64,000 bases of DNA from Paraspadella gotoi (Eukaryota > Animalia > Chaetognatha), in NCBI GenBank assembly GCA_051294375.1, contig CM119267.1, forward strand, positions 26,272,042-26,336,041, read 5' to 3'. Positions within the stretch are counted from its first letter, which is position 1, and every line of letters begins with the position of its first letter. This document shows positions 24,401-47,796 of the stretch, one piece after another. The position numbers and the translations under genes were made by a program. The notes below the pieces were generated by a model. That model did not search any database, was not told the DNA's origin, and saw nothing but the letters and a program-made list of their open reading frames with translations.

Positions 24401-27400
24401 AAAATTTTCTTCAATGATCTTGACGTTCAAATCTCAAGACAAAAGTCAAAATGGACAAAAATGGCATAATTTTTTTTATTAAAAGTAGCAAAAATTATAC
24501 CAATTCTTGATTAGAAAATGCAGCAGATGATTTTAATTAATCCGTAGTCCAGCCCACTTTGTCTTAGGGTTTAAATTTAATCAATTCTGTTGATAATATT
24601 CTAGCAATATTCAAAAAGTGGTTTTTTTTGCTGAACTTCCTCGATAGAAATCACTGCCCTCTCTATTACTAAAGTCAAAGGAAAAGTCAAAAAAATAGGC
24701 AAAAAAAAGTATATTCTCTGAGAGGGAGCTCGCGAGCTGAAGTAGAACCCAAGACAGAACTCAAATCTCTCTCTTTGCTCCTTCTGTCGTCGCTCGCTGA
24801 GGAGGAAGGGAAAGGGAGGAAAAGAGGCGGAAGAGGAAGAAGAAAAGGTGTCTCGAACGAGAATGGGGAAGAGAAATGAGGGAATCCAGTGAAATATACT
24901 CATCCCTCTATCTGTGCCTCACCCTTTATCTGAGATGACTCGACGGGTCATTGACTGACGTGTCGGGTCATCGTGAAGAAGAGAAAAGGAAAAAGGAGGA
25001 AAGGAAAGAAAGAGAGGAATGGGAAGAAAGGGTGAGGAGTGGGGTCCCGGGCATAATTTTATGAAGGGGGGCTGCGCATCAAGAGAGATTCTCTGTTCTG
25101 TGACGTCTAAATGAAGGTTAGTATGCATATAAATACAATGTCGACTTCTCAAGCTCTACTCAGCTTTGGGGGTTGTCCTAAGATAAGTGGGAACAAGGCC
25201 TAAATTAGCCATTCCGGTGTTAGTACACTGTTACAAAATTACAATAAAAATTTAACACTAAACAAGACTTTGGAGGCAATCTTTTTTTTTTTGTTAGGAA
25301 TCCTTGTCGTTGTCTTTGTCCTTAAAGGGTTTGTTTGGTCTTCTTCTTCATGTGATTGCTGAGTTCTTCTACCATTGTGGCCAATCACCTCTTTGCCGGG
25401 AATCTGTCTCCTTCTGGAAATCGTTGTCCTTTCTCCTATCTGCTGAGGATCTTGTCTTTGTGGTATCCGTCAGAGTGACTTGAGTATTACTCCTTAAGTA
25501 TATTTGGAATCCAATCTTCCGTAGGAAGCCGTCTTTGCAAGACCGAGATAATCTTTGTTCCAGTCAACCTCTCATCAGGGCCGCAAGAGGAATCTGCAAT
25601 CTTGTTAGGGAATTCTTCAGGGTTTGCCGTTGGTGGCAATAATATCCGCGAGTGCCGCGTGTGGCGATAATATCCGTTTTTGTTTCATCAGTTTTTTTTT
25701 TTTTTGTGTGTGTGTAATCAGCTTGGGTCGTAGCTACTTTGTATGTACAGGTCGGAGAGGGGACTACTGTGGCCACGAGTATTCCCCATTCCACGGTCAG
25801 CCTATACATTTGGGGCGGGTTGTTTCCGTTGTTTCCGCAGTTTCATGCCTCTGCTGTTCCCGGTTGTGAGGCGCGGTGACCGTAGGCGTTCGTATCGCAT
25901 CTGGGCGCAGCTTCTTCAGCACTCTGCGGTGGACGACTCTGTCGTCGTTCCATATTCTGGCTTCACCAGGTACATCATGACTCTCACTTCATGTTGACTG
26001 GATATTTGGGCCAGAGTTGACATTGCAGTCCTCTGAATCCCGACGTAAGTTGATCTTTCCAAAATTGATTTCTTGTCTTCTCAGAATTTGTATATGCCTG
26101 TTATTCCACTTTTGCTCGCCGACAGATTCCACTCTTGTTCGCCGACAGATTCCACTCTTGCTCGCCAACAGATTCCACTCTTGCTCGCCGACAGATTCCA
26201 CTCTTGCTCGCCGACAGATTCCACTCTTGCTCGCTGACAGATTCCACTCTTGCTCGCCGACAGATTCCACTCTTGATCGTCATGTTCCACTTGATCGTCA
26301 TCATTTTCCTGTTGATCGTCATCATGTTCCTCTCTTGATCGTCATGTTCCTCTCTTGATCGTCATCGTGTTCCTCCTCTGTTCACCGTCAGATTTTTCTC
26401 TTGTTCATTATCAGATTCTATTCTTTTATTTTCTTATCAAAATTTATTTTGTCCATCTGAAATGCTTTGAAGTTTTTGTATAAAGGTCAAATTTTTAAAT
26501 TTTTCTTCCGGTGAAATATAGATTCTTGCGTCTCTCTTCCGATGGAAATACGTCTCTCTTCCAATGGAACCGCGTCTCTCTTCCAATGGAACCGCGTCTC
26601 TCTTCCGATGGCACCGCGTCTCTTCCGATGGAACCGCGTCGCTCTTCCGATGGAACCGCGTCGCTCTTCCGATGGAACCGCGTCGCTCTTCCGATGGAAC
26701 CGCGTCGCTCTTCCGATGGAACCGCGTCGCTCTTCCGATGGAACCGCGTCGCTCTTCCGATGGAACCGCGTCGCTCTTCCGATGGAACCGCGTCGCTCTT
26801 CCGATGGAACCGCGTCGCTCTTCCGATGGAACCGCGTCGCTCTTCCGATGGAACCGCGTCGCTCTTCCGATGGAACCGCGTCGCTCTTCCGATGGAACCG
26901 TCTGATGGATTCTCATTTTTTCAGCATGTGCAGAACGCCTTGTTTGAACGTTTTGGATGCCTCGCTCTACCGTCCAGATTGCCTCGCTTGAGCATTTTGA
27001 ATGCCTAGCTTGAACGTCCCAAATGTCTCGCTTGAATGTCCCGAATGCCTCATTTGATTGTCCCAGATCTCTTGCTTGATTGTCCCGTATGTCACGCTTG
27101 ACTGTCCAGATTGATTTGCTTGACTGTCCAGAACGCTTCACACGTTCGCCGAGAAAGATCTCCCATCTAAATTTCCGTCCTTTTTTCTTTTCCCCTCCAA
27201 ATGAAATCCTTTTTTCTCAAAAATAACTTCTTCGATCGTCCATCGTAATAAAGGTCAACTTCTTAAAATCCTCGTCAGCCATCTTTCTTCCGCTCGAGAC
27301 TTGGATCCTTCTGGCTTTGAACTTTGGATCCGCGGCCCGTGACTTCACTCCGTCTTTGTTGAAAGTTGAGAGCCGAATTCTGAGAGAAAGAGAGAGAGAG

Positions 27401-29021
27401 ACTCTCTGAAATTTCGCATCTTTGGTCTTTTTCGAGGCTCGGTTTTCCTGTTTATTTTGGTGTCGTTTTTGCTGAATCCATCGCCAGTTTTCATCTTTGA
27501 TCGCATCTTCCTGTTTCCATCTTCTTTCCATCTTCCATCTTTTAATTGATCGCATCGTCGCCTCTTCATCGCGATTGCCTTTATTTATAATTACGTAATT
27601 GTCTTCTATTTTTAAAGGGGTCTTTATTTTTATGTTTCGATCCCTCTCTTTTTTTTTTCTTGCTAGATCAAAGGTTTCATGCATTTAGATTAAATTGGAG
27701 TTAATCAAAACAAAACATTCCAATGTCAGGGACGCTCCCCTTTTTCACTTTCAGGAACAGGAATGAAAACAAAAATTGCGGAAATTGGCATCCCTCCAAT
27801 ATTTTACATAAAACAATCCCGAAATGCACATTTTGAAATAGACTTTTCCGCGTATAATTTAAGCGTCATTAAACGAGGAATTCCTCCAAGCAAGAAATGG
27901 ATACTTAAATTAAAGCTGAGGGACCAAAATTTGAGTTCACATGTCCTTAAAGTTGCAGGGTGGGGCCACTCCGTTACATTGTTACAGCTCTGTCTGGGTT
28001 CCAGATTTTTTTTTTTTTTTTTTGGAAAGAATCATCTCCTAAAATGATTCATCTACAGATGAAATCCATTCTGACGCTCTTCTAGGGCAAAATTCGTTTT
28101 CCAGGTGGCTCGCCCTCGTCATCCTTTTGCTCGCCCTCGTCATCCTTTTCCCGGCGTTTTCATCCAAGATGTCCAAGATGTCCATCTGCTTTGTCCGTTT
28201 CTTTCGTGTCCTCAGTCCCGTGTCCTCAGTCCATCTCCTTTATCCGTCTCCTTTGTCCGTTTGCTTTGTCCGTGTCCTCAATCCCGTGTCCTCTCGAAGA
28301 TCTTGCACTTCGCCTTGGGATCCCGTCCTTGTCCCGGATTAACCGTCTTCATCGTTGTCCTTATTTTGTCCACTTTGTCTCCTGGATCTTGTCCTTCCTT
28401 GTCTTCGAAATTCGCTGTATTTTTCTCGGATATTGTCGTCTCCCTCGTCGCCGTCTCCCTCGTCGCCGTCTCCCTCGTCGCCGTCTCCTGCGTCGTCTCC
28501 TTCTGCGTCGTCTCCTTTGCATCGTCGCCGCCTTCGTCGTCTCTTTCGTCGTCGCCGCCTTCGTCGTCTCTTTCGTTGTCGCCGCCTTCGTCGTCTCCCT
28601 CGTCGCCGCCTTCGTCGTCGACAGTTGAGAAACGAGCACAGGACTCATCCACAGGGAGTGGGTTCGAGGCGCGAAAATGGCGACACTAACAGATGGGTAG
28701 GTCCATCATCTCTATCTCTCTATTACTAAAGTCAAAGGAAAAGTGAAAAAAATAGGCAAAAAAAGTATATTCTCTGAGAGGGAGCTCGCGAGCTGAAGTA
28801 GAACCCAAGACAGAACTCAAATCTCTCTCTTTGCTCCTTCTGTCGTCGCTCGATGAGGAGGAAGGGAAAGGGAGAAAAAGAGGCGGAAGAGGAAGAAGAA
28901 AAGGTGTCTCGAACGAGAATGGGGAAGAGAAATGGGGGAATCCAGTGAAATATACTCATCCCTCTATCTGTTTTGATTTCTTTCTTTTTTTCTGGCTGCC
29001 TCTGCTGCTGCCAAAAACGAT

Positions 29022-29052
<31 letters not shown>

Positions 29053-29779
29053 GCGTTTTTATTTTAAAAAAAAATTAATTAGGACTGAACTCATAGAATT
29101 AGGCATCACATTCGTACATGTTATCATTTTGCTATCGCAACATCGAGTTTTTATTTAGTTCTTTCTTTTCGTCATTCTCTCTTTATTTTTTTTTCTTTCC
29201 TTCCTATTCTTTCTTTCCTTTCTATTTTTTCTTTCCTTTCTATTCTTTTTTTTCTTTTCTATTTTTTTTTCCTTTATATTTTTTCTTTCCTTTCTATTCT
29301 TTCTTTTCTTTCTATTCTTTTTCCTTTCTTTCCTTTCTATTCTTTCTTTCCTTTCTATTCTTTCTTTCCTTTCGATTTTTTCCTTTCTATTCTTTCCTTT
29401 CTATTCTTTCTTTCCTATTCTTTCTTTCCTTTCTATTCTTTCTTTCCTTTCTATTCTTTCTTTATATTTATTCTTTTCTTATTTTTCTTTCTGTTTATAA
29501 ATTAATTTTCTTTTCTCAAATTTGATTTTTTTTTAGTATCAAAATTTGTCGTCAATCCAGATTTTTCTTATACGATTGCGACGATCCTTATGCTTTTAAG
29601 ATTTTTTATTTAAAATTAATGTATTTACAGTTGCGCGAATTAAGGCAACACTACTCGCCCGATGAGCGGCCCATCGTTCTCGTTGGTTGGGGCGTCGGCT
29701 CTCTGGTCTCGACTCACGTGGCTCTGCTGGAAGTCGCTTCTGCCGTCGTTTGCTTGGGTTTTCCTTTTTCTGGCATTGG
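15425..29779 (+). CDS. KANSL3: KAT8 regulatory NSL complex subunit 3, 5' part only; exons 15425-15694, 15765-15933, 16657-16921, 17017-17147, 17210-17415, 20841-20927, 29631-29779
   Basis: Spliced translation matches KANSL3 motifs: LFQL...ELDVVALDHAYARAW, DRLARL, AYLDILQTLKSKLPSLVDR, ALASLLKRPWDP, KFWHQQLSALGKV|IPI, QQCLENMI, RPIVLVGWGVGSLVSTHV...AVVCLGFP (alpha/beta-hydrolase fold). Downstream exons were not found in the window. Confidence 0.92.
17503..17850. repeat. 22-bp minisatellite (ATCAGTGAATGACTATCATCGC)n, decaying toward ~17990
   Basis: Direct tandem units without spacers, in KANSL3 intron 5. Confidence 0.9.
18286..19042. mobile_element. Inverted-repeat element (MITE-like, or tail-to-tail SINE pair) whose ~232-bp arms contain a tRNA-like head
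   Basis: 18286-18517 is the reverse complement of 18811-19042 with few mismatches; each arm has the terminal hairpin TGGTGGA-ctaaaa-TCCACCA, an A-box-like TGGTGCCGGAGG and a B-box GGTTCTAGCCC; TA at both outer ends. Confidence 0.8.
19193..20596. mobile_element. Tc1/mariner-type MITE interrupted by a TRIM
   Basis: TA|CAGAAGGCTTCATAT ... ATATGAAGCCTTCTG|TA; the imperfect inverted arms continue (gtaccccttttt-gtgacc / ggtcacaaaaaggggtac; tcgaggcgaatttt / aaaattcgcctcga). Confidence 0.8.
19839..20570 (-). mobile_element. TRIM with tRNA-like sequence in its LTRs (Helenus-like), family B
   Basis: Near-identical ~255-bp direct repeats 19839-20092 and 20315-20570; 4-bp TSD GTAC (19835-38, 20571-74). 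On the minus strand the LTR reads TG...ATA with A-box TGGCTGAGCAGG and B-box GGTTCAATCCC, PBS-like TGGTGAGCCC 2 nt after the 5' LTR, and PPT-like CTGGTGGGGGATCC before the 3' LTR. Confidence 0.85.
21396..24658. mobile_element. Unclassified non-autonomous DNA transposon inserted in an LTR of element X
   Basis: 14-bp perfect TIRs GGCAGTGATTTCTA / TAGAAATCACTGCC; removing it restores the LTR with an extra CTCT (apparent 4-bp TSD in a CT-repeat context). Confidence 0.8.
26104..26275. repeat. 23-bp tandem array (CCGACAGATTCCACTCTTGCTCG)n inside element X
   Basis: About 7 near-identical units; a longer, indel-noisy version lies at ~59585-60080 in copy 2. Confidence 0.9.
26527..26901. repeat. 22-bp tandem array (GATGGAACCGCGTCGCTCTTCC)n inside element X
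   Basis: Homogeneous core units with diverged flanking units; the equivalent array in copy 2 coincides with the N-gap 60341-60608. Confidence 0.92.
29200..29465. repeat. Pyrimidine-rich tandem repeat (ctattctttctttccttt-like)
   Basis: Direct reading; explains spurious F/S-rich ORF 29118..29525. Confidence 0.8.
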
Positions 29780-29994: not shown

Positions 29995-32900
29995 TGTGAG
30001 GCCGAGCTACCTCGACTCTCTCTCTCTTTTCCCTCAACAGCCACATGACCTCAGACTTGACTTGACTTGATAGGCGTTCGTGCCTCACTCTCTCAATGCT
30101 GTCGTCGTATGTGTCGCGCCTCGATTTGATCTATCGAGATCCATTCCGCAAAGAATTACATCTAACTCGAACACTTTGAAAACTCTAGCTTCTTCAACTT
30201 CTCTTCCTGAGCTCATTAGACCAGCTATCTCACAGCTTCTCCGGTGCTTGCTTATATAATTCGGGCTATACTCTTTTCCCACAAACGCATCCTTCCTTTC
30301 TCGATGAGTCACTGGCCTTACACCCACATACCTTATAGTGGTTAATCAGGTTTGCTTCCTGACTGAAAGATTACATCACATTTTCCGCAACTGAAAGACT
30401 TCTTCTGACTGGATACCTTCGTGAATTCCTTTTTTGTGTGTCACAAGACCGGCTCTCGACTTGCATTCTGTTCTCCACAGTAAGACAAATAAATCTATTT
30501 TCTCTTCTCCCAACATTCCTTGTTATGCTGTCCCCCCTCCACTTATGCCCTAGACTCTTTTCCCATTCCTAACGGTGGTCCATCCTCTCCTTTACTCGAA
30601 TTCTCCATAGCTTTCGGTCTTTTGTCATACTCCTATATCGCACACATCCATCCCAGCTCTCTTAATATTTTTCTCCAGTAGTGGTGGGTCCTTCTGTTTC
30701 CTTTACACTTTTAACTCCATTTCTCTAGTTCGCTCATCCATCCAAGGATTACAGCCTTGGCTATTCGGTCATCCTCCATCCTCATCACATGTCCTATCCT
30801 TTCTAAACACTCTCTTTTCAATTTTCCATCTTATGCTTTTTATCCTCAGGTGAGATCTCACATCCTGCATGTTAACACCTTCCTCCTGCATTTGAATCAA
30901 CGGAGGCTTATTCCTCGTTCTCACACAACAAATCTATATGCTTTGTCTACAAAAGCTCTGAAGAGATTTTATTTCCCTTAGAGTCCAAACTCTTACGGCA
31001 ATGTCCAAAAAGAGAGTTTTCTACGCATGCTTCTATTATTCTTGCCTGCATCCTCTTGGATAGGCTCGACCCACTGAGCTGTTTTTAAGCTTCCACAAGT
31101 CTTATTTGCTCTCTTTGATTCTGTTCTTCACATCGTCCTTCCATCCCATCCAGTCTGCCTAACATCCTCACCCCCACCACTACCTTCTCTACAAATTCAA
31201 GTTTCTCTTCTTGTCATCATTGTTCCTTTCCATCATATCTCCCATGACCTCCTTAACTATTCCCACTCCTCCTTCCACTTCCTTTTCATCCCCTACTAGA
31301 GTTGTGTCATCACAAAAGGGCTCTTATCAATAACTATTCCAATGGACTCTGAATTTCTTTTGCCCACATTTCTCCCTGTATGAAGCTTCCGGTGTACCAG
31401 TTGTGTACTGTATTCAAATGTCATTCCCATTTCTCTTCCGCTCGAGATTTCCTTTCTATCGCTTGCTTGTCTCATCCACCTGCTGGTGATATTATGTTGA
31501 ATAAAATCACAGGAGGTTGGGCATCCTTCCCTTAATCCTCTTTGTGGCACCCAGCTTTCACTAGTCCCCTCTTTCCCTCTTACAGCATATTCCGTCGTTT
31601 CATGTAGATTTACCAACACCTTCAGGAGGCGCCATTCAGTCCATACCTCTCCAAGAGCCTCCACAAGGCGGGCTTGTTGACTCTAGGATATGCTTTTCTC
31701 AGGTCGAGCAGTCTTGCTACTGGGTTGAAAGTGTCCACACCCCTCACCCTCCTTGCTTCCAGGTCTAAAGCATCTTCCTGCATTCTAAACATCATCTGTG
31801 TGGCATCTGCTGTTGATCTTCCGCTCCTGATCCGCGATTGATCGTCGTCCAGAAGCTCCATGTCTTCTGCCCATTTCTTTAGCCTGCTAGCTACAGTCCT
31901 CGCCAGTACTCTGCTTGCCAGGATAATAGGCAAACACCTCTGAAATTGTTGGGTCGTTCTTACCCTTTTCTTTCCATATTGGTACAAACATAAACCTTCT
32001 TTTTAAGCTGTCCTCCCAACTATCCGCATCCCTTTCAAACATGAAGAACCCAATCTTGACCAGCTCGTCTAATACAGGATTCCTCCTCCTCTCAGCAAGT
32101 ACACCAGTCTGACTCCATCTTCCCTGAGCATGCCTCTCTCATTCTAGCACTAATTCCTTCACTATTTCTTCTTTCTCTGGGCTTTGTTAAGAGACTCTCG
32201 CCACTTCTCCGTCCTTGCATCTTTTCTTAGGTCTGTTCACAGTCCACAGCCTTCATGATCTCGTCCGGGCAGTTCTCAAACCTTTCGCACCCAACTTTGA
32301 GAATTGAGCTTTGAAATCTTCCTTTGTTAGCGTAGTTACATTTCTTTTCTTCACCCTCTTGTCCCTAGCTGACGTAACACCTTATACATTTTGCCTATGT
32401 CACCCCTGTTTCCTGCATCGCACACTCCTTATAATTTTCCATCCACCATCCCTTTCCCAATCTTCTCTTCGTCTTATTCCATAAGTTTCTTGCCGCTTTT
32501 AGCTCTATCCTCACTCTTCTCAGCTCTTCCCCTTCCTGTCGACTCTCCATCATCTGGTTCCTCTTGTCCAGTAATTCCGTTACACCTCTTTTCATGAACA
32601 CTTATCTCATCCTCTCTTCCTGCCATCCATGGATCTGACACGCCTCTGTCTCTCTTGCCACATGCTGATTCCGCCGCCTCATCACGCATTTCGCTAATCT
32701 GCACCAGTTGGATGAATAAATTGTCCGTGTCATCTTTGTTCAGCTCAAGCTTTTTCCTCACTTCCCCTTGATATTTTCTTCCGTTTCCTCGTCTTTTAAC
32801 AGCTCCCATCTTATCTCCGCTCTCTTACCTTCACGAAATTCTTCCTCCACTTCTTGTTCTTCAACTTGAGGACCATCTTATTTTGCTTGTGGTCGGATAG

Positions 32901-34242
32901 AAACAGATTCGCCTACCGTCTTTACTTTTTTCACAAAATGATGTCGTTGGTTCATCCTCATGAATGAAGCCGTCGAGCTCATACCAGTTTCCGTTTAGGT
33001 CGAGAACCAAGTTCCCTGTTTTTTCTTTGTAGAGACTATTTACCCCAGCATACGCCATTTTCTTCACACCAAGTCATCAATTCTCTCCCTTGCTCATTTG
33101 ATCTAACCAGTCCAAACACTCCTGTTTGTCCGGTTCTCCCTTCATCTCTTCCGATGTGTGCATTGAAATCGCCCCCTCAATTAGAGCAGGTTCCTCACGC
33201 TTGGCCCAGTTCATGTGTTCCTTCAGCGATTCTCCTCGTTCTCCTTATTTACTATTAAATTCTCTTTTTCTCACTGGCATGTACGTCGACACGAGCGTTA
33301 TCTCTCCTAGCTTAGATTGACACGCATCTTTCTGAAAAAACGCTTCTTTGGCCTCCTTCGCTCCATTTCTTCTATGTGCTTGTCTCTTAACAAGATCCCT
33401 GCCTTGGTTAGAGTGAATTTATTACAAAACAGCTTCTTCATCCTGTCCCATCTAGTACGCCGTCTTTCTCTCGCCATATCTCGCTTAATAAAAATTACAT
33501 ACCCATTCTCTTATTACCGCTTCCCCGATACTATTGCCTAGCTTTTCTCAGATTTCTGCCTTCCAGTGACATTCTCTTGCACATTTCCACTTGTTGACAA
33601 TGTTCACTGCTTAATTTCCACGGTTCTTGTCCCCCTTTTTCTTCTTCCTCTAACTTCTCCTTCTCTTTCCTGCTTTTTCCTTTCTTCTCTGTTCTCCTCT
33701 TTTCTCTAGCTAGATCTTGATTTGTCTCTTGGCCCCGGGTTTGGATGTATGTTCACCAGACGCCGCCCTTATCGTCCATCATCCTTCTTCTCTCCTCGTC
33801 TATAAAATAAATCATACGACGCACCTTGAGAGGCTGTAGCCATTTTCTGTTTTAGGAGGTGACATGGGTGGCAAGTTCCATGCCCACTCCGTTGCCCATA
33901 AAACGGATCGGGGATCCACCTCTCCGGCTTGACCTTCTCCTTGTTTTCTGAGCCTGTCGTCTCTTTTGCCATCCCATGGGATGTTCCCGCTGGCACCGCG
34001 AGGAGGTTGAGACGTTCTGCCAGCACATGACCTCAGACCTCAGGTCATTGGTCTCGTCGGTCCCGGGCTTCAACGGGTTTCTTCGTCGTGGCCGTAGCAC
34101 GAGAGACAACCGTTTCAACCTTCGAAACTGTACACATTTTATTGCTCTTATGTTTCAACATATTCACTATGTTATGTCTCTTCAATGTTTTACCTCATAC
34201 ATAATAAATGTCTCCCTACTTCTCTATGTCGTGTCTTCCACA
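29995..34242 (+). mobile_element. Probable solo LTR (~265 bp once the LINE is removed)
   Basis: Pieces 29995-30056 and 34039-34242 join; TG(TG)AGG start, TTCCACA end, AATAAA ~35 nt before the end, short GTG(T) duplication. The exact left boundary is ambiguous. Confidence 0.55.
30057..34023 (-). mobile_element. RTE-like non-LTR retrotransposon (LINE), near full length but heavily frameshifted
   Basis: RT motifs 'RSGRSTADA', 'LDLRKAYPRV', 'GLREGCPTS'; endonuclease-like fragments ('NWYELDGFI'); C-terminal zinc-finger relic (ECKSRAGLVTH); (TCAAG)n tail at ~30057-30070; 15-bp TSD CACATGACCTCAGAC at 30042-30056 and 34024-34038. Confidence 0.85.
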
Positions 34243-35253
34243 GTGTATGAAGCTGAAAATTTATATACAGCTTCTCATCATCGATGTGCTTAAATTTGAA
34301 GTCTGGACAGTTATTAAAATTGTTTTGTTTATGTTTTATCAAACAAACAGTTTTTTTCTTTTATTTTTATATTTCTTTCTCTCTCTCTTTTCTCTTTTAA
34401 TTAATTTAGCTATCTCTACTCTCTTTTCCCCGTGCTGATTCAATCGGAAAAAAAATGAGTCTGCAGATGGCTCTGCATGGGCTTATTCTTTTTCTCTCTT
34501 TTCTCCTGCTGCTTCTGCGTTTTTATTTAAAAAATTAAATAGGATTGAACTCGTAAAATTAGTGCATGTTATCATTTTGCTATCGCAACATCGGGTTTTT
34601 ATTTCGTTTTTATTTTATTTTTTTTTTTCTCTCTCTATGCAATTGCGACGATCCTTTCGCTTTAAGATTTTTATTTGTCAATTTTTCGCATCGCCCATAT
34701 TTATGACATAGTATCACCATATATAATCACAAACAATTTAAAATGGGTTTTTTATTTATTTTGAAAGCAGATTCGAATTCCTCAAGAAAAGTTGATAAAA
34801 GGAAATATATACTCTTTATGTTCTCTAGTACAAGACAACTAATATATACCTGTTACTTTATTATATATGTCGCCGGAGAGGCATGGCGGGCCACGATGAG
34901 CCACTGAAAAGAAAAAGGGGGAGAGAGGGTAGAACGATTAGTGGTGCTGCACCGTACCAGCACTTGTACACATACAGGCGCCATGCAGTCGCCATGCAAA
35001 CTTGACACTCGACACTCGCTCCCACGGTGATTTCACTCACGGGTGAGACAGCGAGGAGGTCCTGCGGGGAAAGTGACTATTCACCGCGACCACTGCTGAC
35101 TCACTAGTTTAGTAGTGGGTAGAGACTAGAGACCATGCGTACGACGGCATGACCTAGGGTACACGACACACGGGGAGCACAGGGACACCCATACCTAACT
35201 CCAACACCCAAACCTAACCAAAGAGTGGCTGAGGAGGCGAGAGACGAGAGGCG

Positions 35254-36477
35254 TCAGAAGGCCCTCTCCTGAAGGCCAGCGTTGAGAGATCTGGAAAAAG
35301 GTGCGGCGACGTCCGCAGCTGAGGAGCCGGAGGCAGAGGAGACATACGGCCTATCGCAACGAGTGAGCGGAGTTGGAGAACGAGAAACCGCGATGGAGTT
35401 TAGTGTAATGTTCGAAGACGCGCTGGTCATGTGCCCCGCTCGGAGGCCCAACGGCAGTGACCCATGACCTCCTCCTTTGAGGCGCCAAGCATGAGGAGTG
35501 TGATGGCACACCCAGCGCGGGAGCCGTGAGCGGTGAGGCCTGGAAGAGCGTCGTCCGGGAGATAGACGCGAAGACGTCTTGTAGCGTTGTTGGAAGAAAA
35601 CGGAGCGTCGAGGACGGCGTCGTGCCGTGGGGACTTGGTCGGCCGAAACAGGAAAGAGTTGACCACGTCGAGGCCATTAGAAGCGCAGAGCGAGACGTAA
35701 CGGTCAAGAGCCAGAACCGGGCAAAGAAGAGGCTCGTCAGGGACGGCGGGAACGACGAGGAGGTCACCGTCGTTCTGGCGAATCGTCTTACCGAGAGTAT
35801 GATTAAAGAGCAAAGATCCACAATGGAGACGAGTGACCTCGCGGCCAATGGCGCGGCCAAGGTCACCTGCGCGGTCGCCGGCGAACCATTGGGAGGTGAA
35901 AAAGGCGAGATCGCGAAAGAGAACGAAGCGATCGGGGAGGAAGGGAGCGGAGGGAGGGAGAGTCGATACGACGCGAGATCTCGGACGCGAGAAGGCGAAG
36001 GTGGGTGGAGAAAATGGGTGGAGACTGACGAGGAGTAACGTGGGCTTTGCATTGCTCGACGGAGACGGCCTTGAGCCACTTAGAGACCAGAGGCGAGGCG
36101 CAGGGGTTAGAACGCGGATTGGCGGGAGAGAAGGCGTCAACGCGGCCGATGGAATTGAAGGCCGCCCTGAGCTTGCCAATGATAGAGTCGACAGTGCCAG
36201 CGGCGAGACGAAAGGGGCAGAGACAGGGGTGAGAGCCGTGAAGGCCAACGAAGGGACATCCGAGAGCGTGGACTTGGGTGCGACCCCGAGAATCCCTGAA
36301 GTGCAGGAAACGGCAGACGTCGTCGGGGGTCGCAGTAGTGAGAGAACGCGGAGGAAGACGCGGGGAGGCGTGAAGCAGAAATGCCTCGAAATCAGATACG
36401 AGCTTCGACTTCTGCTTCTCGTAAGAAGTGAGATCGATGTGTGAAAAAAGTTCCGATTTACGCGTGAGAAAATTATC
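35254..36477 (-). CDS. ALOG-domain tyrosine recombinase, with frameshifts at ~35945 and ~35430
   Basis: Unlisted frame from 36477: ...SYEKQKSKLVSDFEAFL...TPDDVCRFLHFRDSRGRTQVHALGCPFVGLHGSHPCLCPFRLAAGTVDSIIGKLRAAF...NPCASPLVSKWLKAVSVEQ; then the YR core GDRAGDL, GKT, LCPV, FLFRP, HGSRAG, GHCRWAS, HYTKL. Confidence 0.88.
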
Positions 36478-36498
36478 CTGAAACGAAACGAAGAGACA

Positions 36499-39290
36499 TT
36501 AAACGCGAGGTAAAACACCAAAAGACGAGCGAAGAACAGAAAGAAGATGGCGAGAGAGCTTGGTAAGCCCAGACGCATTAAGATGTACATCATCCTTAAG
36601 GTCGGCGAATTTAATGTGTTCATTCGAAACAAAAGTCCAATCAGGGCGAGCACAGAGAGCCCGCAGCGAGTCGTTCCCAAGTGCAATCCTGCGATTGATG
36701 GGAGAGGAACGAGACTGACAGATCCCGGAGAGGAGGATCCGATGCGCGACCTGGAAAGAGGTCAAAGCCTGAGACAGATAACAGCAAGAAGAAGGGAAGA
36801 GAGAGCGGAAAGAAACGTCGTCAAGGCGAGAGGCGTCGTTGACACCAGCATGGAGAACAAGACCGTCGAAGGAGAAGTCGCGTGAGACCTTCAAAGCCTT
36901 GAGGACGACATCTCTGAGAGTGCCGCCAGAGATGCAGAAGAGAGAAAACTGAAAGGGCGAAGGCCAGCGCAGAGAAAGGAGGGGTCGAAACACAGAATCG
37001 GAGACGAGGAGAATCCTCACGACGGGAGGCGGTAAAGACTGAGGGACGCGAGAAGGAGGGAAGCGGCAGGAAACGGCGAGAAGCCCGAAGGGGAGAGGGA
37101 GGCGATTGGAGGCGAAGCCGGAGGAAGAAGGAAAGTCGAGAACGCCAAGATCGGAGGGAGAAGAGAGAAGCTTTTGATCGGAGATGAAAGGGCGCAAAAG
37201 TGAGTGCCAGGCTGGGCGACGAGAGAAAAGCGGTAGGACAAGGACGGCGTGGCAGGAGCCCCATTCAAGCAGAAGCCGGATCAAAGGAGGAATCATCACG
37301 AAAGGAGGAAAAGCGTAAAGAGTCCCGGCAGGACAGGACTGGGAGAAGACGTTAACACCCTTGGCCCCAGGAGAAGGGTGCGGGGAGAAGAAGGGAATGG
37401 GCGAACCGTGCGGATCGCAGAAGGCATTCGAAGGGAGAGCCATGAGATCGACAGAGAAAGGGCCAAAGAAAGACCAAATGCGGAGACGAAGACCCGAAGA
37501 GAGACGGGCGTCGGAGCGCTGAAGAGCGCGCGAAGGGGCATCGGCAGGGTTGGAGTAGGTAGGAACCCAAAGAAGGGCGAGAAGGGCATTGTGCTCAAGG
37601 CAAAGAAGAAAAAGATCCTTGAGGACCGCTGTGAGCTCAAGGGATCTAGAGCGAAGACCAGACCAGGCGTGGTAGAGAGCCTGATTGTCGACAGAGACGT
37701 CGACGCGACGATTGGCAATCGACGCGGAAATAGCCTGAAGGGCGTAAAACACGGCGGTGGCTTCCTTGACGCTGATGTCGGCGGTAATAAGAGAGTCGGA
37801 CCAATAATCGCGAAGCACCAACGGACCAGAAGGTGAGGCAACCTCCGCACCCCAAGCGTGACCAGAAGCGTCAGTATAAAGACGAAGACTGAGATGCTGA
37901 TGCCGGCGAAAAGGGATAGGATCAGAGCAAGAGTCCACAAACGACCAGAAAGAAATCTCGTCCAAGACGAGCGGAGTAAGCGGAGAGGGAACCTCGGACA
38001 GAGAAGGGATGAGAGAACGGCACTGAAGAGTGAACAGAGAGGAAGCCGGAAAAACAAGGCGAAGGTGGTTGCATTTCCCGATGAAAGACTGAATGTCGTG
38101 GAGGGAAGCAAGACGCGAAGAGAGCAAGCGTTCGCGAAGAGTGCCGAACTTAAGCTTGAGCTTGTCGGGAAGAAAGAAAGCAGAGGAGGCGCTGTCAATG
38201 CCGAAGCCAAGGTGAACTAGGCGTTGAACGGGGGAGATCTGGCTCTTGGAGGGAGAGATAAAGTAACCGAGCAGGTACGCCGTATGGAGAAGACAGTAAG
38301 AGGCCCGTTCCGCCTGATGGAGATGATCGTCCTGTAGGGCAAAGGAAGGAGAAGGCGAGAAAATAAAAGGGAAAGTTAAAGTTTAGGGGCGAGGCCCAAA
38401 AAGCGATCGTCTATCCAGAGCTCAGTGTGGACGCCGCGGTCTCTGAGCCAGTCCGAAAGGACTTCACCGATGGTCGTATAAACATAAGCCGCGTTCTTCC
38501 AACCGAAGGGGAGGGTGGTGTCGCAGAACCACCAACCAGCCCATTCAAAACCGCAGAAAGTGTAGGAGGCGGGAGAGAGGGCGACGTGCTTGTAGCCCTG
38601 AACGTCGTCAAAGGAAGAAAAGAAAGATCCGTCGGGAATAGAGCGGACTATGTCAGAGAGAGGCGTAAGAGAAAAGGGGGTATCACGGCAGAAGAGGTTA
38701 ACTGCCCGCATCGAGTTGATGAGACGAGGCTTGGAAGGCTCAACAGAGAGAGCATTCACGACCCTCGGAGGGGGGTCAGAGTCGACTCGGCCTAGGCAGA
38801 GAATACTGCCCTCACGGAGGCGTTGGGTGATGGTGTCGGAAATAAAGTCCTGGAACTCCCAGCAAATGGGAGCGTTCTGGAAGTACATGTGCGGGGGAGT
38901 GACGGAGTCGAAAGAGCGGCCGTTGAACGTTCCCGTATAATGCGAGAAAAAGGACGGAATGTGCACACCATCGCGGAGCCATGGGCGAACGACCTTATAA
39001 CGAGGAATGTCCTTCATGAGGGACTCCCAAGCATCGAAATTCCGCTTGAGGTTGCCGCAAACGAAAGATTGAGGGTTGCGGAGGCGAAGAAGATCGAAAC
39101 GGGGAGGAAGACGACCGGCGAGGACGTCGGACGGCGAAGGGAGAGCGTTGTAGTCGGGAGCGGAGGCGGGAGAGCCGAGAAGGTCGACCCAAGACACAGA
39201 GGTAGAGGAAGGGCGAACGATAGAAGGATTGAATGAAGGCACGGAGATAAGCGAACGAGCGGCACGACGACGAAGGTACCGAGCGAAGTC
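36499..39290 (-). CDS. Pol: reverse transcriptase, RNase H, DIRS-type adenine methyltransferase-like domain and SGNH hydrolase; one frame break at ~38380
   Basis: RT: SKPRLI, SFDDVQGYKHV, TLPFGW, WIDDR, LGYFISPSKS, HLGFGIDS; RH: LYTDAS, KEA, VDNQA, NPADAPSR; MT: SVDLMA..SNA, YAFPPF; SGNH: LLVSDS, ISGG, HAGVND, DDVHLN. Confidence 0.88.
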
Positions 39291-39863
39291 CTAAAGAGAA
39301 GCGGATAAAGAGGTGAAAGCGAAGTTGGAGACACGTTGAAGCAAGAGCAAGCAAAGATGCCGAAACAGGCGGGGCTCCACCGCACCCGGTGCGGGAGCGA
39401 CGTCGAGCCAAAATCCACCAGAGTTGTGGGACAACTCCTGGAAAGGCTAAAGCGCTGCATCCAATGCAGGTGAGGGATCCGGACATGAACCAACCAGTCG
39501 TAGAACGAATCTGGGCGATGGAGTCCACACTCCAAGAGAGCTGAGGTTGTAGAACAAGCGACAGCTCTCCGCTGTTATGGTTCAGTCCGATCGACACAGG
39601 GCTCAACGAGGGCCAAACACAGTCGGAAGCCGACGCGTTGCTAGGCCGGAGCCGCGAAAGAACAAATCAAAAGGGGGGGGACCCTACATGACAATCATGC
39701 GAACGGATCATACGCATAGTTGAACCGACAGAACACTCACCGTAGATCCAATAGCGATGGAAGGCGCGACGAGAGTGATCTGGAAACAAGAAGCCGACAT
39801 CTATCACAGATCGGCGCATGAAACACTGACAGTTCGATAAAAGAAAAATAAAAGGGTAAAACA

Positions 39864-41200
39864 TTAAGTCTTGGAGTCTGGACAGTCGCGGGCCATGTGG
39901 CCAGCTTTCAGGCACTTAAAGCACTTGTCCGACGAACTAAACGTTTTCTTCGAGGGTGAGGAGCGTTGAGAACTGCGAGACCCGTAAGAGTAGTAACGAC
40001 CGCGGGAATATGAGTTGCGGCCATTGTTAGAGAAAGAACGACCCCTGGAGGAGTCCTTCTGAAGAAGAAATCTATCCACGCGGCGAGCGAGGTCGGAATT
40101 GGCGCGGCCCGTCATTTCGGCATAAATCAGGGCGGCAACGCCAGGCTTACGAGCATCGACATGAGCCTTGCAGGCATCAAGAACAACGTCGAGGTTGGAG
40201 CGGAAATTGCGGGCCTCAACCCTTCGAGTCGAAGCCATGGACTTCGAGGAAGCCATCTTGCGTAGCTGGGACATGTAGTCGAAAATAACGTCGTAGAAGC
40301 ACGGAAGGGGCCGGGATTCATCAGCCATGCGGCGCTTACATAGCTCGATAAGCTTGGTCCGAACATCCTTCATGCTCTGGAAAGACACAAAGCGTTAGGG
40401 AGGGGAAGAACCCGACCTGGGAACCCAAGAGAGGAAGAAAGGAGACTAAGAGAAGAGATAACGTAATAAACAACATAAAAAGGGCTGACCTCGGTGGCGA
40501 TCTTGTTGAAGGACTGGGACAGACACTGACGGTTGGCTGACTTGGAAGTGGAAGTAGAGGCAGAATCTTCAGCGGGAGCGTCGGTCTTGTCGTCATCAGC
40601 ATCGCTGAGGTCCGAATCGGAGACATCCTCATACTGGACCAGCTTGACGGGTTCAGGAGTGGCGGGCACGTCAGAGTTGGAAGACGTGGAAGGAAGGACA
40701 TCGCCGGACGCAGACTTGGAAGACGAACTCTTGGAAGTGGACTTGCTGGACGAGGATCTCGAAGACGACTTGGACGAAGAAGGCGGGACAGAGGATTCCC
40801 TGGAGCGCTTGGAAGAAGACGAAGACGGGGAAGAGGAGCGCTTGGATTGAATGGCCGACATGAAATCGTCGCGAAGCAGGCGGCGAAAAACGGACTTGAC
40901 CCTGAGAAACTCCAGTCTGCTAGTGACGGTAGTGGACTTGGAACTGCCAACAAAGAGAGCCTGGATGAGAGCGAAGGCTTCACGGCCGTCTTCAGAATCG
41001 GCACCGATGAGACGAAAGTCCTGGAGAGAACACACGCCGTTGGAGGTGAGCTTGGTAACGGAAGCGGGTTGAAGGCCGTAATGAACACAGACGCTCTGAA
41101 CACGGCGATCAAGACGGCAGTCGGAGCCGTAAGGGTTGAGGCCATCGGCGAGAGGAGAGACGGCACCATCGGGAGAATCGGCAGGAGAAACATCCGGCAT
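39864..41200 (-). CDS. Gag-like protein, two exons (41200-40490, 40376-39864); Ser-rich N-half, C-terminal CCHC zinc knuckle
   Basis: ATG at 41200 (MPDVSPADSP...); a 113-nt GT-AG intron 40489-40377 joins ...KIATE|SMKDVR... in phase 0; ends with CFKCLKAGHMARDC. Confidence 0.75.
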
Positions 41201-41459
41201 GATGTAAAGGAGGCCGAATATAATGTCGATAAAAACTGGAAAAATATAAACCTGGGAAAGGAAAACAAACAAAAAACGGAAAAAGGGCGAAAAAGAAGGG
41301 AGAAAAGGGACGAAGGGGAGAGGGGGACACAGGGATGAATGTCCAAACGGAGTCCTGAGGGAGCGAGTGCGACAACGAGTAAAGGAGTCAACCGTGAGAC
41401 GGGATGATTTCACTCACCGGGTGAGACAGCGAGGAGGTCCTGAGGGGGGAAAATAGCGA

Positions 41460-44400
41460 GATGTTAACAGTGATACTGTGATTACCGTGGTACTCTGATG
41501 TTTTGAAAATAAGCGTTAGAGGGGAATGGAATGAAATGGATGAAGGGAATGTACCAGCATCACAGAATCTCTGTATCACAGCCTCAAAACGTTGAACTTC
41601 GATCGAAAGTTGTCCCTGGGATCCTTTTAACTTGAATATAAACGCCATACGACTTAAATGTACCTCGACTTACGCTCGGTTTTCATGGTGAACGGCTAGA
41701 ATCATCTTCGTTCAACCGTGTGCCCAGGGTTCAAGGTACCCCAAATATTCCGGTTCTGGCAAAATGATTTGAAACATGCCAAAGTGACAGTTGACAGCAA
41801 GGGTCCGGAGCCCTGGCCAAACAGTGTGATACCCCTGCGCGGTATGCAAGGCAAACCCACCGTTTGCCCACTCAAATATTGTTAATAGAAATGATTAGGG
41901 CGAGTGTTTGATTCATTGATGATTATTCCTTAAAATTGAAGCGTGGTTTAGGCGTTCATTAGTCACGCGGATTAAAGGTAAAACTATCTACTACGTGAAT
42001 ATGCTTGAAATCATGTGTATAATATTCTTGATTCATGCCAAAATGAAAAATACGGCCCAAGTAACGAAGTTTTATTCCAAAACTGGAAAATCGAAAACTA
42101 GGTCGTAAACGAGTCGCGTTGTCTTTCAAGGAGATATTTCGCAGATTAAACCTCCCCGCCGGTTTGAAATCTGCGATCCTGATAGTCGTCCCACCCGTTA
42201 GGAGATTGCCCAGCGGTTCCCGTGATAGTGATGCCATCGACGGTGGCATCGCACTCTTCGATGTTGGAATCCCGGCCGAACCGATGGGGCGGGTCGAGTC
42301 CTGGAAGTTTGTACGTTGGTGTGCGCCGCAAAAATGATCTGTTTCGAAATCGGCGAGATACCGCGGAGTGAGACTTAAATCATTTGCTGTCGAATCCGAT
42401 GTTGAAGATTAAGAAATATTTGCCAATGTTTCTCTCCATTAACTCTCCAAAAATGGGCGAAGAAAATTAAAGTTGATCGATGATTGTTTTCTCTTAAAAG
42501 CAAAGGTAAGGTATAGGACTTACTACGTTTTCTGTTAGTTCACCTGTGCCGGCTTTCCGCATTTGGCACGACCCACCACCGCAGCTTCGAGTTGTCGTAA
42601 GCCAGGCTATCTCTCGAACCAGGCGTCCTCTTCCACTTTGAAACCGAATGATCGACCAAGTAGCCCCCCAAATGCCCCTCGGCAACCCGCGCTTTCGCTG
42701 GCCCAGTTTCCGCGTTCAAACCGTGGTAGGTGTAGTTTCCCGAAGCCCTGAGATAAACGGAGAAAAAAAGATTCGCAATCTCTCCAGAAATATAAAAGAA
42801 AAAAATAGCTTTAGTAATATAGAATTTTTTTTAACATGGCTCAAATTGAACTTATTTTCACTAAATAATAAATATGAAACAAATATTATATAACGCAATC
42901 GACTGCTGTCCTCCATAATTGTCAATTTTGAAATTTTCGACAGATTTTGTCTGCTTTAAATTTGGATTGGTTTTGTCTTGTTTTTTCTTTTCTCTATCTT
43001 TCTTAGGTCTTTCTCCTTCATGAATATTCAAAACCTTCAGTGAAATCCACGGCGCAGGTGTAACCGTGTCGCCCAGCGTGGCGGAATCGGGTGGAACAAG
43101 CTGCAGCTAAATCCTCCGCGGGAATTGTGACATATGCCGTGAGCGCTGCAGTTGTTGAGGGTGATATCGGCGCATTCATTAACATGCGTTCGGCAAACAC
43201 TTCGTCGGCCCCTGGAACCCCGTTTGCAGTGCAAGGCGTACGAGCCCCGCTGTTGCTGCAAGTCGCGTCGGCGCTACATATGTTCGTCTGCAGGAAATGT
43301 ATTTTCACTGAAAAAGAGTCATTCGTCCAAAACGATAATTACGGAAGAATAAAAAAATAACCTTGATTCGTCGATGTCGTCGACTGCACGATTTACCGTC
43401 ACCTTCGTATCCGCACAACGCAAGCGCAAGGAGTAGTCCGCACAGCGGTAGTTGCTGCACATTCGCATTCACGTCGCAAGTGAGGTTTCCTTTGGCCATT
43501 AGAATCGCCAATAAGTTATTCGAACGTCACAGAATCATGCTGACAAACAATTCGTTGAGGTGAAACAATCATTATTGGAATCAAACCAAAGTTTTGCGCA
43601 TTCGTCGATGTCGGTGCACACGGTATCCGTCTCCTCTAAATCCTGGTTTGCACCTAAGAATCAAAAATATTGATCAATTTTATTTAAGCTAATTTTAAAT
43701 CAATTGGATTTTATATCGATTTCACGAAACCGATCACTTAATATTGAATTAAAAACACAGTTTGATTCAAAAACGATCGCGAAGATTGCGTAAATACGTG
43801 ATCGCCTCCTAAAAAAAAAAACGCCAATTGTTTTCTTAATCTCTAGCAAATGTCTCACTTGCAAGTGTAACTTGCCGACACTGTTGGTGCAGAAGGCGTC
43901 TGCGTTGACATTCGTTGATTTTGACGCCGTGCATTCGTCGACATCTGTACAGAAGCTGCGATCCGCACCTTTCCGTACCCTTGGCGACAGATGCTTGGAA
44001 AGAACCTGAGGGACTAACTTATAAATGAGTATTTGAGCGTTTAGCGTTTGAGCATTTAGAATATTTGAGAATTTTCATCCCGACCCTGGACTGTTGCTGG
44101 CAGTCGGCCAGGTTGTGGCAAGGGATTGGACGACACTCGTTGACATCGGTCCCGCAATTTGCGGCTTGCCCGTCCCCGCTGAATCCGGCGTTGCCACACG
44201 CACGGTAATGAACCCTCGTTGTTGAGCCGCAGTTGGCGTGTGGGGGTGGGTGGGGGGGGGGGTGGTGAAAACACTCGGAGGGAATGCTCCCGCGCATGTC
44301 GTTTATGTCCTGGATTGATGTGGAGAATTAACTTCTGACTTCTAGATTGTTATCTCGCACGGTAGCCTTGTTTCTCCATGGCGACGAACCTTGACAAGTC

Positions 44401-46118
44401 TTTCACCCGTCTCCGTGGTAACATGTTTGCAAGCAGGCGTATCCCCTTGCTAGTGCCCACAGCAGTCCGAGTATCTTGTCGCAGTGATCGCTCCAACGGA
44501 TTCGCGCAATTGATCTCTGTTACACAAATCAATACATGTTTTATATCCCTCCTTTTATCCTATTCAACATTCCTAAAAATTTAAGTAATTTTTATTAATT
44601 ACCATCCATTTACCGTAATTCATTTTTTCCTCTTTAAATAATTCGATCATCAACTACTTTCCGAGAGGGCCGTGTCCATCGCCTGAGCGCGTTCTTGAAA
44701 CGGAAGTCATCGACGTGTTTGAGCTTGCTTTTGATCCCGAGCCATGTTGGCTGATGATTTCCCTCAACGTCGTTTCGATCGCGAACACGTTGACGGGTGA
44801 TCTATAGTCAGAGAGTCCCAAAAGTTGGCGCGTGAGATGTTTTGCTCGTGATAATTAATTTCGTAAACTCTCCTCCGAACAAGCTTAATAAATCGAACAA
44901 TCAACGCTGACCACTGAGCAAAACGAAAAGTCCCATCAAAACCAATTCGAAACATTCTAACCTTCTTCTACCAAAAATATGCCACCCCTCACATCACACC
45001 TTACCTCACTCTCGCTCATTCTCTAACTACCCGCCGTCCTCGACCTCGACTCACCGCTCCACGTCAGAGACGACGTTCCTAATTCCGCTTGAAAGTTTTC
45101 GGCTTCTCGAGGGCGATGGTTATCCTGCACGCCGAGCCGAAAGGATGTTCCGTTCAGCTCCCCGTCCAGCAAACTTGAGTCGCGCATCTTTCCGGTCGTC
45201 TCCAGTCGTAGTTCCATCGCCAAAGCATTCTTCGATCTTTGCAGCTCATTCAGGCGTCCAGTGTTGTGGTGCCTACCGTGGCGGCAGGAATTTCGAATAG
45301 ATCGTATCTCCTCTTATTCGTGTGTATGATAAGGGTAATTATATAATGTTAATAATAGACAGTAAATTAATAAAAGATAGAAATATAAGAGCTTCTCACT
45401 TGTCTGACGATCGGGGCCGCTGCCTTTCGACGACCGTGTGTGCGTTGTCATCAAGCCTCTTTGCATCGGCCTCGGGCAACATCGATCGACGTCTTGATCC
45501 TCTCTCGTGCGTCGGATTCGAGTCTCGTGTGCGAGAGAACGAAACTCCATGAACTTCTCCGTGTGGACTGAGACGAGATGCGTGAGGGAGTCGAGTTGGG
45601 CGTTGAGGTCACTCTGTCCCTGAAAATTGGAATCATAATTTAATAATATTAATAATTGTAATAAATTAATAATTGGTCATCGATTATCCACCTTTCGTTT
45701 AAGCTTTCGCTTTCGTTTTCATTCAATGACTCACTCTGTGCAAATTTAGATTCGTTGGTTAAGTAGAGGATGAAGCAGAGAAAGAAGAAACCAACACCAG
45801 CGACCACTAAACCGCAGATTTGGGATTCTCGACAACTATAAAAACAAAAGGGAAATGTGATTGGTGTTTAGGGAGAGCAACACGCACAATTGGCGATGCT
45901 TGATCAAATTTAGAATAAAGGGAGAAAAACTATTGTAGATTGTCAATCTAACGTCACGCCCATAACACTTCTTTGTTCAGAATGAAAGCAACTGTTTGAA
46001 GCGGCGCGAACTGAAAAGCCGTTGGAATGAATAAGTTTTTTCATCAAAGGATCTTATTCGCTTTGTAATTCATTTTCGCTCCTCAATTTCATAATGTTTT
46101 TACTCGCAATCCCGGGAA

Positions 46119-46190
<72 letters not shown>

Positions 46191-46322
46191 AGAGACGGTT
46201 GTCGGGGAAAGAAAAAATTGCAGGACGTTCCACCTTCGATATTCTTCGTTTTCCGCTTTGTCAGAGGAGCTAGAAGACAAACTAGTTTTTCGAACTTCCT
46301 GTTTCGTGTCCGCTTCTTCCAT
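41460..46322 (-). pseudogene. Multi-exon gene for a probable type II membrane protein with Ca-binding EGF repeats, a C-type lectin-like and a CUB-like domain; frameshifted as assembled (pseudogene or low-quality consensus)
   Basis: Hydrophobic exon 'ICGLVVAGVGFFFLCFILYL' (~45740-45835); RIRRTR basic site (~45510); several DVNEC/DIDEC/DVDEC EGF units with G(F/Y)xGDG (43060-44310); CTL-like 'GGYL...WWV' and 'GWDD' (42140-42740); CUB-like 'RFCDAGTFPSSISFHSPLTLIFKTS' (~41490-41580). Start and exon limits are approximate. Confidence 0.6.
46121..46195. repeat. (GA)n microsatellite
   Basis: Direct reading. Confidence 0.95.
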
Positions 46323-47796
46323 CCGGTTTTTTTTTCTTCAATTCCGCTTCCGGTTTCGCTTTCACTCTGCATCGACTTCTTTTCTTTTCCGCTTCGAATT
46401 CCATTTCTTTTTTAGTTTTTAATCTCCTCCTCTGCCTTCCATATTCGCTGCGCAACAAAAACACCGCAAGAACGGATCTAAACGGTTTTTTCTAACTCGT
46501 AAAATATCAATTTTTGGCGGCCGGAAGAAATGGGATAAAGGGGAGGCGTTTGGCACCCTATAAAGTCGCTGGGGCCCCTTTAAGGCTCTCTCTCTGCTTG
46601 TCTGCTTGCTCTCTCTCGCTTTCCTCTTTTTCGCGTTCCCTTTCTTTCTTGGAGATTTTTTTCCCTTTTTTTCTAATTTTCACTCTTCTCTACTCTGACT
46701 AACACATGTTCTCATCTCTCTAATCTATCTCTCTCTTCTCTCATCTCTCTCTCTCTCTCTCTCTCTCTCTGCCACTGACATTTGAGGCGAAATCACCCGT
46801 TAATTGGATCCGCATTCTGAAGCTCTCATATTCACTCGGGAATCGAATGACAGAGCGCCTTCCTAAACTCTCAAATAGGCCTCACCTCCGAAAGGGAAGT
46901 CATGGACGGACGATTTTTCCGCCATTAACGATTAATACGCCGTCACTTTCCGGGAAACGCAGAAACGTGGAAACGCGCAGCACAGCCTTTTTTTTCATTT
47001 TTATATTACCTTCGACTTTTGAATTTACGTTTTTGCGCATCAATAAATCACAGTCAGTGAAACAACCATACTCTTGTTTAACCACCCGCTCCACAAATCG
47101 CAGCTCGTAGGGTAAGGCCACAGAACGCAACTTGTTGAAACTCCGAGATGAAAAGGCGAGAGAAACCTGAAGTGGAAATCAAGTTATGGGACCGATTATT
47201 CATAAATATAATAAAAGTAAAGCAGTAGTAGTAAATTGGTTTTAAAAAAAAAACGAAAATTTAATTTTCGATGCTTCACGTTCGGTTGATCATTATAGTT
47301 TTTTTTACATACTATTTAAAGATGTATATCAAAACTCGACGCAACCTAAAATAACTAAGGAAATGATTTGTAAGTAACATAGTAAATTGCTATCCCATTT
47401 TGAAAATTTTGTTTATGAAATACGTACATTTCTTACATAAAAAAAATAATTATAATTGTTAATGTTATTTATAATTTTTAAAAAAAAATACACGGTCTAT
47501 AAAGCGTTCTGACTTGTGGCGACTGCCAGTGGCAAATAAAAGAAAGTAAATCCCCGAACGACAAAAAACAAAAAAAAAACAAACCACAAAAACACGAAAA
47601 ACCCCCATAGTCGTTTTTTTTTTTTTTCGCCGAAGCGACCTTTACTTGAAATTCCCCCGGGAACGATTTTCCTCCTTTTGTCCTCGAGAGATTTCCCGTT
47701 CCATCTCTCCTCCCCTTTCCCTCCCTCGCTCTTTCTCTCGCTCTCCCTCTCGCGCCTCTCTCTCTCTCTCTCGCCCCTCGGCTTCCGCCCCCGAAC

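Follow-up and report, generated by a model that had tools for sequence, protein, structure and literature searches.

Organization of the element and its surroundings

The minus strand of the 64,000-nucleotide stretch of Paraspadella gotoi DNA analyzed here (the window) carries a tyrosine recombinase (YR) retrotransposon that encodes a Gag with a CCHC knuckle, reverse transcriptase (RT), RNase H, a methylase-like region, an SGNH hydrolase, and a recombinase with an ALOG domain. Its features are listed below from the 5' end to the 3' end.

34860..41451, minus strand: ALOG-type DIRS1-like YR retrotransposon, 5' end at 41451, 3' end approximate only
41405..41447, minus strand: direct repeat A1, 43 bp, with an acceptor-like site and a donor GTGAGT at 41417 inside it
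41252..41417, minus strand: candidate 5' UTR intron, 166 nt
40490..41200, minus strand: gag exon 1, 237 codons from the ATG at 41200, with a folded-looking N-terminal part and a Ser-rich linker; proposed shared leader
40377..40489, minus strand: candidate gag intron, 113 nt, T-rich, changing the frame
39864..40376, minus strand: gag-C exon, 170 aa, with a CCHC zinc knuckle (PF00098, E 8.8e-06) and an ATG at codon 2
39741..39779, minus strand: candidate mini-exon, 39 nt, phase 0-0, with a strong donor GTGAGT and an in-frame ATG at 39800
38376..39290, minus strand: RT-N frame, 304 aa, starting at a phase-0 acceptor and containing RT as far as the catalytic WIDD, a conserved 9-residue tail, and a stop
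38332..38375, minus strand: spacer inside RT, 44 nt, with a branch-point-like stop, a pyrimidine tract, and CAG, and with no GT
36499..38331, minus strand: second pol frame, 610 aa, starting at a phase-0 acceptor; rest of RT, RNase H, methyltransferase-like region, and SGNH hydrolase
35254..36477, minus strand: tyrosine recombinase with ALOG domain (E 1.7e-25), starting at a phase-0 acceptor
35028..35069, minus strand: direct repeat A2, with a donor GTGAGT at 35040
34904..35040, minus strand: candidate 3' UTR intron, 137 nt, with the donor, CACTAAT, a pyrimidine tract, and CAG
34862: AATAAA, near the 3' end of the element

The combination of a gag knuckle, RT-RNase H, a methylase-like region, and an ALOG YR places the element with the ALOG DIRS1-like retroposons described in PMC3537659, and judged by its sequence it is a member of that group, whose marine hosts and terminal direct repeats it also shares. 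The recombinase has its ALOG domain at the N terminus (PF04852, E 1.7e-25), and the close relative P0219 combines ALOG with a weak Phage_integrase match. RT and RNase H lie upstream of the YR, though in two frames. For the methylase-like region, a YAFPPF motif stands at the expected place behind RNase H; the window protein has no Pfam match there, and the distant relative P0009 matches PF05869. Repeats A1 and A2 (35069-35028) are 95% identical over 43 bp, and the terminal direct repeats of the Ectocarpus ALOG element measure 159 bp (PMC3537659). Unlike the elements described in that paper, the one in the window has RT in two frames with an acceptor at each frame, an SGNH hydrolase fused behind the methylase region, and a YR without the FCS-type zinc ribbon, which is absent before ALOG in the window and its close relatives and present in the outgroup YRs.

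The element was also compared with the accounts of PAT-like, Ngaro, and other DIRS-order elements given in PMC6681497, PMC9210276, and PMC4157794. The PAT-like and Ngaro elements described there resemble the present one in having a direct repeat that begins the element and recurs close to its 3' end; the methyltransferase-like (MT) region is shared with PAT-like elements and the SGNH domain with some Ngaro elements. Those accounts give the order as three often overlapping ORFs with RT and RNase H in one, an arrangement reported for all groups and not found here. Ngaro elements are described as having no MT and an SGNH domain after the YR, whereas in the window an MT-like motif is present and the SGNH domain is fused to the second pol frame, before the YR. 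Of the split repeats of PAT-like elements (A1..B1 A2 B2), A1 and A2 were found, and no B1/B2 pair longer than 7 nt was seen, the 3' end being approximate. DIRS-like inverted terminal repeats with an internal complementary region were not found: the candidate 5' UTR intron holds just an 11-nt complement of the 3' tail of the element, and the whole duplex between the 5' and 3' parts was no better than shuffled sequence (91 of 200 shuffles as good). An Rfam search of the element gave no match.

Sequence near-identical to the element occurs in nine runs from three studies. In the four runs examined, long contigs differ from it by 0-5 letters and deleted variants are present as DNA; two contigs exit the 5' end into unlike flanks, and the end at 41451 is marked by loose ends with differing flanks in two contigs of run X8. 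Few differences, deleted variants, and differing flanks are what a recently mobile family would show. In the window copy the YR is broken: comparison with a metagenomic relative (L001) places a frameshift near 35930 and an insertion near 35440-35470, and other copies are without the letters near 35468. Both UTR introns are predicted from sequence only; the 5' one was missing from the preliminary description, and removal of the 3' one would excise the sequence behind A2. In contigs present in each of the four runs, the 3' tail comes immediately after the A repeat (window 35004 and 41399), with a perfect complement of the 5' leader longer than that of the window copy; such contigs may be short non-autonomous forms or may derive from other copies at their A2 junction.

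The element is adjoined by a decayed non-LTR (LINE-like) retrotransposon at 30000-34000 on the minus strand (RVT_1, E 0.00033, at 31622-32002). A host gene encoding EGF-like repeats lies at 42138-47164, also on the minus strand; it has about ten GT-AG introns, and run X8 contains a spliced, diverged copy of it at a depth of 172. A short, very abundant repeat at 34759-34809, with a weak copy at 9688-9728, is flanked by many different sequences in each of the four runs; 26437-29570 is occupied by tandem repeats whose units measure 9, 12, and 15 nt, and a 259-aa repetitive frame is open there; and 55421-57082 on the minus strand holds two adjacent frames (243 and 309 aa) with a transposase-type look, split by a stop and without a convincing Pfam match.

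The two reverse transcriptase frames

The preliminary description assumed a single pol frame, but two were found, and the acceptor-like site that it had mentioned as a minor feature at the frame break opens what would be a separate, essential protein containing the rest of RT, RNase H, MT, and SGNH. The RVT_1 match of RT-N (E 0.0014) is below the cut-off, and its profile matches foamy-virus and other RT structures; the second frame has weak Pfam matches to RT_RNaseH and Lipase_GDSL_2, and PF13472 is matched by many relatives. When the domains are placed by weak alignment to Ty3 RT and by general knowledge of the RT fold, the catalytic aspartates fall on one chain, and the following helix, the primer-grip region, the thumb, and RNase H fall on the other.

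The same break recurs throughout the close relatives. WIDD is present in 86 of 94 close relatives of RT-N, a stop follows it within 12 residues in 76 of those 86 (exactly 9 residues in 46), and none of the 86 reads through from WIDD into LGY. RT-N motifs were found in none of 86 close relatives of the second frame in a search that allowed up to 1,068 residues, and a search restricted to 533-2000 aa returned no close fused form except one gene model from the sea star Patiria miniata. This RefSeq model (P0001) is annotated as one fused protein inside the clade, with about 50 residues of the C-terminal part of RT missing. In a tree of 103 RT-N rows, built after removal of rows lacking the motif and of fragments shorter than 180 residues, the split clade (75 split rows and P0001) received 100/100 support; in a tree of 67 second-frame rows, for which every second close match was used, the separate frames (44 rows and P0001) received an SH-aLRT value of 99. 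In the outgroups RT is continuous, and a variable loop occupies the position of the break. P0214, scored as split in the tree, was rejected as such, as it sits with zero branch length among continuous RTs and looks like a cut-off fragment.

The tail behind WIDD has the consensus RF(L/V/I)GxAPx(L/I/V/F) and is kept as protein: R is found in 84, F in 85, G in 81, A in 75, and P in 74 of the 86 relatives, position +9 is hydrophobic in 72 of 80, and from DD to the stop 9 of 11 codons differ between the window and L001, all synonymously. The spacer that follows measures 44 nt in the window, 112 nt in L001, and, by inference, about 10-49 nt in eight relatives; the spacers of the window and L001 differ in frame. 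An assembly error or private frameshift was rejected, since the break and spacer are identical in DNA runs X1, X2, and X5 of two studies (one may be the source of the window). A GT-AG intron inside RT was likewise rejected for want of any GT in the 44-nt spacer, and a fixed ribosomal frameshift for the differing spacer frames of the window and L001, so neither a normal intron nor a fixed frameshift joins the halves.

From these comparisons, the break in RT is a family trait and not decay, and sequence evidence supports the split well. We think it very likely that in vivo the two halves exist as separate chains. Halves joined near the Leu-Ala of the tail would have textbook RT spacing, and structure alone thus leaves room for a join at the RNA level.

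Candidate splice signals and the probable source of the start codon

The splice signals listed in the preliminary description are all present on the minus strand within a few bases of where it had put them and in phase 0. The last intron base is at 40377 for gag-C (exon AGC ATG), at 39291 for RT-N, where the TAG is itself the in-frame stop bounding the RT frame, at 38332 for the second pol frame (earlier given as about 38335), and at 36478 for the YR, 21 nt after the pol stop; all four acceptors open an uninterrupted phase-0 frame. The first Met is far from the frame start in RT-N (codon 92), the second pol frame (codon 297), and the YR (codon 197), in line with the earlier statement that neither pol nor YR has an ATG near its start; gag-C differs, and with its ATG at codon 2 it alone could do without a coding leader. 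The warning that chance acceptors would be common was justified: ten acceptor-like sites (YAG with at least 11 pyrimidines in 14) occur in 4,518 coding nt, six of them in phase 0. The window alone therefore cannot settle splicing, and relatives are needed.

Upstream extensions of the relatives show a stretch rich in Phe, Leu, Ser, and Pro and then Gln directly before the homologous start, the pattern that a phase-0 CAG acceptor behind a pyrimidine-coded stretch would give, although in protein data CAG and CAA are not distinguishable. At the position homologous to the RT-N start, Gln is found in all 14 relatives whose sequence extends to 40 residues before the W-x-D anchor, a pattern chosen after the first 10 of the 14 had been inspected. 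For the second frame, Gln stands 17-25 residues before LGY in 18 of 21 rows, one of which is the window protein, and three rows have no Gln; in 13 of 20 relatives its offset is the same. Of the four close YR relatives with upstream extensions, three have Gln and the fourth has Lys. The outgroup YRs have Gln within eight residues of the start motif in 7 of 11 scored and none in the other four, so the YR acceptor may predate the split of RT.

At the DNA level, a metagenome scan gave 43 loci, one of them in the clade (L001, which has no gag), and viral and prokaryote collections yielded no DNA of close relatives. In L001, the sole close relative with DNA, the second pol frame and the YR are each preceded by a pyrimidine tract and a phase-0 TAG. 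The stretch between its pol stop and YR acceptor (2819-3063) contains one more acceptor-like site, lacks an ATG in the YR phase, and has a donor-like site, cag|GTAATG, 84 nt before the YR acceptor. Conservation, proposed earlier as a check, is thus seen in relatives for the acceptor signature at RT-N, the second pol frame, and the YR, with DNA of L001 at two of these. Intact copies whose frames have their own ATGs and lack the AG sites, the pattern named in advance as contrary to splicing, were not found in the close clade; P0091, from a basal subclade, begins with a called Met, and its own start codon is possible there. From this conservation we consider it highly probable that the acceptors at RT-N, the second pol frame, and the YR are used in splicing.

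The window offers three candidate donors, two of them coding and in phase 0 (40489 and 39740) and one non-coding (41417). The donor gag|GTCAGC has its first intron base at 40489, in phase 0 after 711 nt (237 codons) from the ATG at 41200, and it is within the range of the host because the GT-AG introns of the adjoining host gene use loose donors. DNA runs X1 and X2 contain a variant joint, 40405>40478, whose end points spare both splice signals of the gag intron. The mini-exon at 39779-39741, 39 nt of open frame, would end at the donor acg|GTGAGT (39740), and an ATG in the same frame lies at 39800. Gag exon 1 has no Pfam family above the cut-off, its single-sequence fold has a pLDDT of 52, and Atlas hints at SAM-like domains with scores of 0.78-0.80, which is a lead only.

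In run X8, which is guessed to be RNA, introns of the neighboring host gene are skipped. Over the element, X8 gave unspliced contigs only, at depths of 3.5-7.3, and a related deleted copy, about 87% identical and at a depth of 24, crosses the RT spacer unspliced. Four joints match no predicted junction, and there are 11 loose ends besides; contigs show presence and not absence, and these are evidence neither way.

Gene models of more distant ALOG elements have one homologous N-terminal domain (leave-one-out E 1e-10 to 1e-17) that is joined to the YR in Mytilus, Argopecten, Lineus, and Branchiostoma and to RT in Mytilus (P0443, E 1e-20). These fusions are predictions from outgroups with a continuous RT, and similarity of their N-terminal domain to gag exon 1 of the window is not detectable, the parallel being one of position only, so the models support a gag-like leader in cis as the source of the start codon only indirectly. 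If splicing does take place, the leader is probably gag exon 1, spliced in cis.

The alternative that comes closest accepts the split RT and the acceptors as real and takes the start codon from the ATG of the mini-exon at 39800 or from another short leader in cis. The perfect GTGAGT donor in phase 0, the in-frame ATG, the ATG that gag-C itself has at codon 2, and the non-coding donor at 41417 all suit such a leader, but the acceptor before the ATG at 39800 is poor, an out-of-frame ATG lies just upstream, and the outgroup gene models have a long N-terminal domain on both RT and YR; we regard this reading as improbable. Slightly less probable still is that the RNA is a polycistronic precursor resolved by trans-splicing to a spliced leader with a terminal AUG, like the leader of flatworms. 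It would account for the operon-like layout and for acceptors conserved at every frame while no conserved donor has been demonstrated, but the element contains in-phase cis donors, and the clade includes an element of the sea star P. miniata; trans-splicing is not known in echinoderms.

A little further down stands the joining of the RT frames by ribosome hopping or by a non-canonical intron, whose donor might for example be the GC of the Ala codon in the tail. The residue at +6 is Ala (GCN) in 75 of 86 relatives, and a join there restores the usual RT spacing, but Pro (CCN), a codon unfit for a donor, follows it in 74 of 86, the intron would be 25-28 nt long in the shortest relatives, the residues behind the Ala are conserved as protein with synonymous changes only, and the differing frames of the spacers leave no fixed frameshift that works, all of which makes this explanation a poor one. 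Translation of the downstream frames of a split RT from unspliced RNA, by re-initiation at non-AUG codons, has a precedent of its type in LINE-1 ORF2 and agrees with the starts of the frames, each 0-51 nt from a stop, and with the unspliced contigs that the sole RNA-like run gave; we consider it very unlikely, as it leaves unexplained why, in relatives with 50-70% identity, a pyrimidine tract and Gln or TAG occur at one and the same codon. Least credible of all is a decayed copy with a mutational RT break and chance splice signals in a C/T-rich strand, a view suggested by the broken YR and by acceptor-like sites about once per 450 coding nt, which for the RT break and the three acceptors is already refuted, because the break and the acceptor signature recur throughout a clade whose frames are long and open.

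Proposed expression program and relation to other retroelements

On the preferred reading, splicing of a gag exon 1 leader in cis, full-length unspliced RNA would be the template for replication, as is suggested by the fact that near-identical copies keep the spacers, and gag exon 1, perhaps via the 39-nt mini-exon, would be spliced to one of four phase-0 acceptors. The predicted products would be Gag, RT-N, RT-C/RNase H/MT/SGNH, and recombinase, amounting to 407, 541, and 847 residues and a leader-YR fusion. The preliminary description had proposed one leader joined to alternative acceptors; the conserved phase-0 acceptors at the pol and YR starts agree with that proposal, while its three products become four. 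The two RT halves would assemble as a two-chain enzyme, possibly aided by the shared N-terminal piece, and we speculate that this piece of Gag might be an assembly tag that gathers both RT halves and the recombinase in one particle. Equally speculative, and no more than a reading of the letters, is the idea that the candidate UTR introns strip terminal replication signals from the mRNAs. The splicing program as a whole is likely from the sequence evidence, and it is reasonably probable that this element, from a split-RT clade, makes four proteins with one shared leader, four phase-0 acceptors, and a two-chain RT.

Goodwin and Poulter reportedly described introns in some YR retrotransposons in 2004, one of them in an RT gene. 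An ordinary intron of that kind restores one RT, which the spacer of the present element does not. A natural retroelement RT that consists of two chains, each translated separately, is not known to us. A literature search found no report of a split RT in a retrotransposon. Foamy virus is described as having a spliced pol mRNA (PMC7828637) and plant Ty1/Copia as having a spliced short gag mRNA (PMC5580714); in these accounts regulated splicing yields separate proteins and the unspliced RNA is the genome, as is proposed here. Unlike the present proposal, both have one continuous RT chain and a DDE integrase, and no coding leader common to four products is described for them. The main text of PMC3537659 contains neither "intron" nor "splic" and reads the stops in animal copies as inactivation. 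The element may best be seen as a variant of the ALOG-type DIRS1-like elements, distinguished by its well-supported split RT and by a likely splicing program.

We lean, by a modest margin, toward a widespread marine clade in which a two-chain RT is cut in the palm just behind the aspartates and a gag leader tags four products. If true, this would be a new way to build a reverse transcriptase, and a clade that keeps the split would show where RT tolerates being cut. It would also imply a further level of control, new for such elements, since through the choice of acceptor the polymerase core, the RNase H half, and the recombinase could each be made in its own amount. The exact junctions predicted here bear on how DIRS-type elements express pol and YR frames that have no ATG. 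Some animal ALOG elements deemed dead from the stop codons in their RT may be intact by design.
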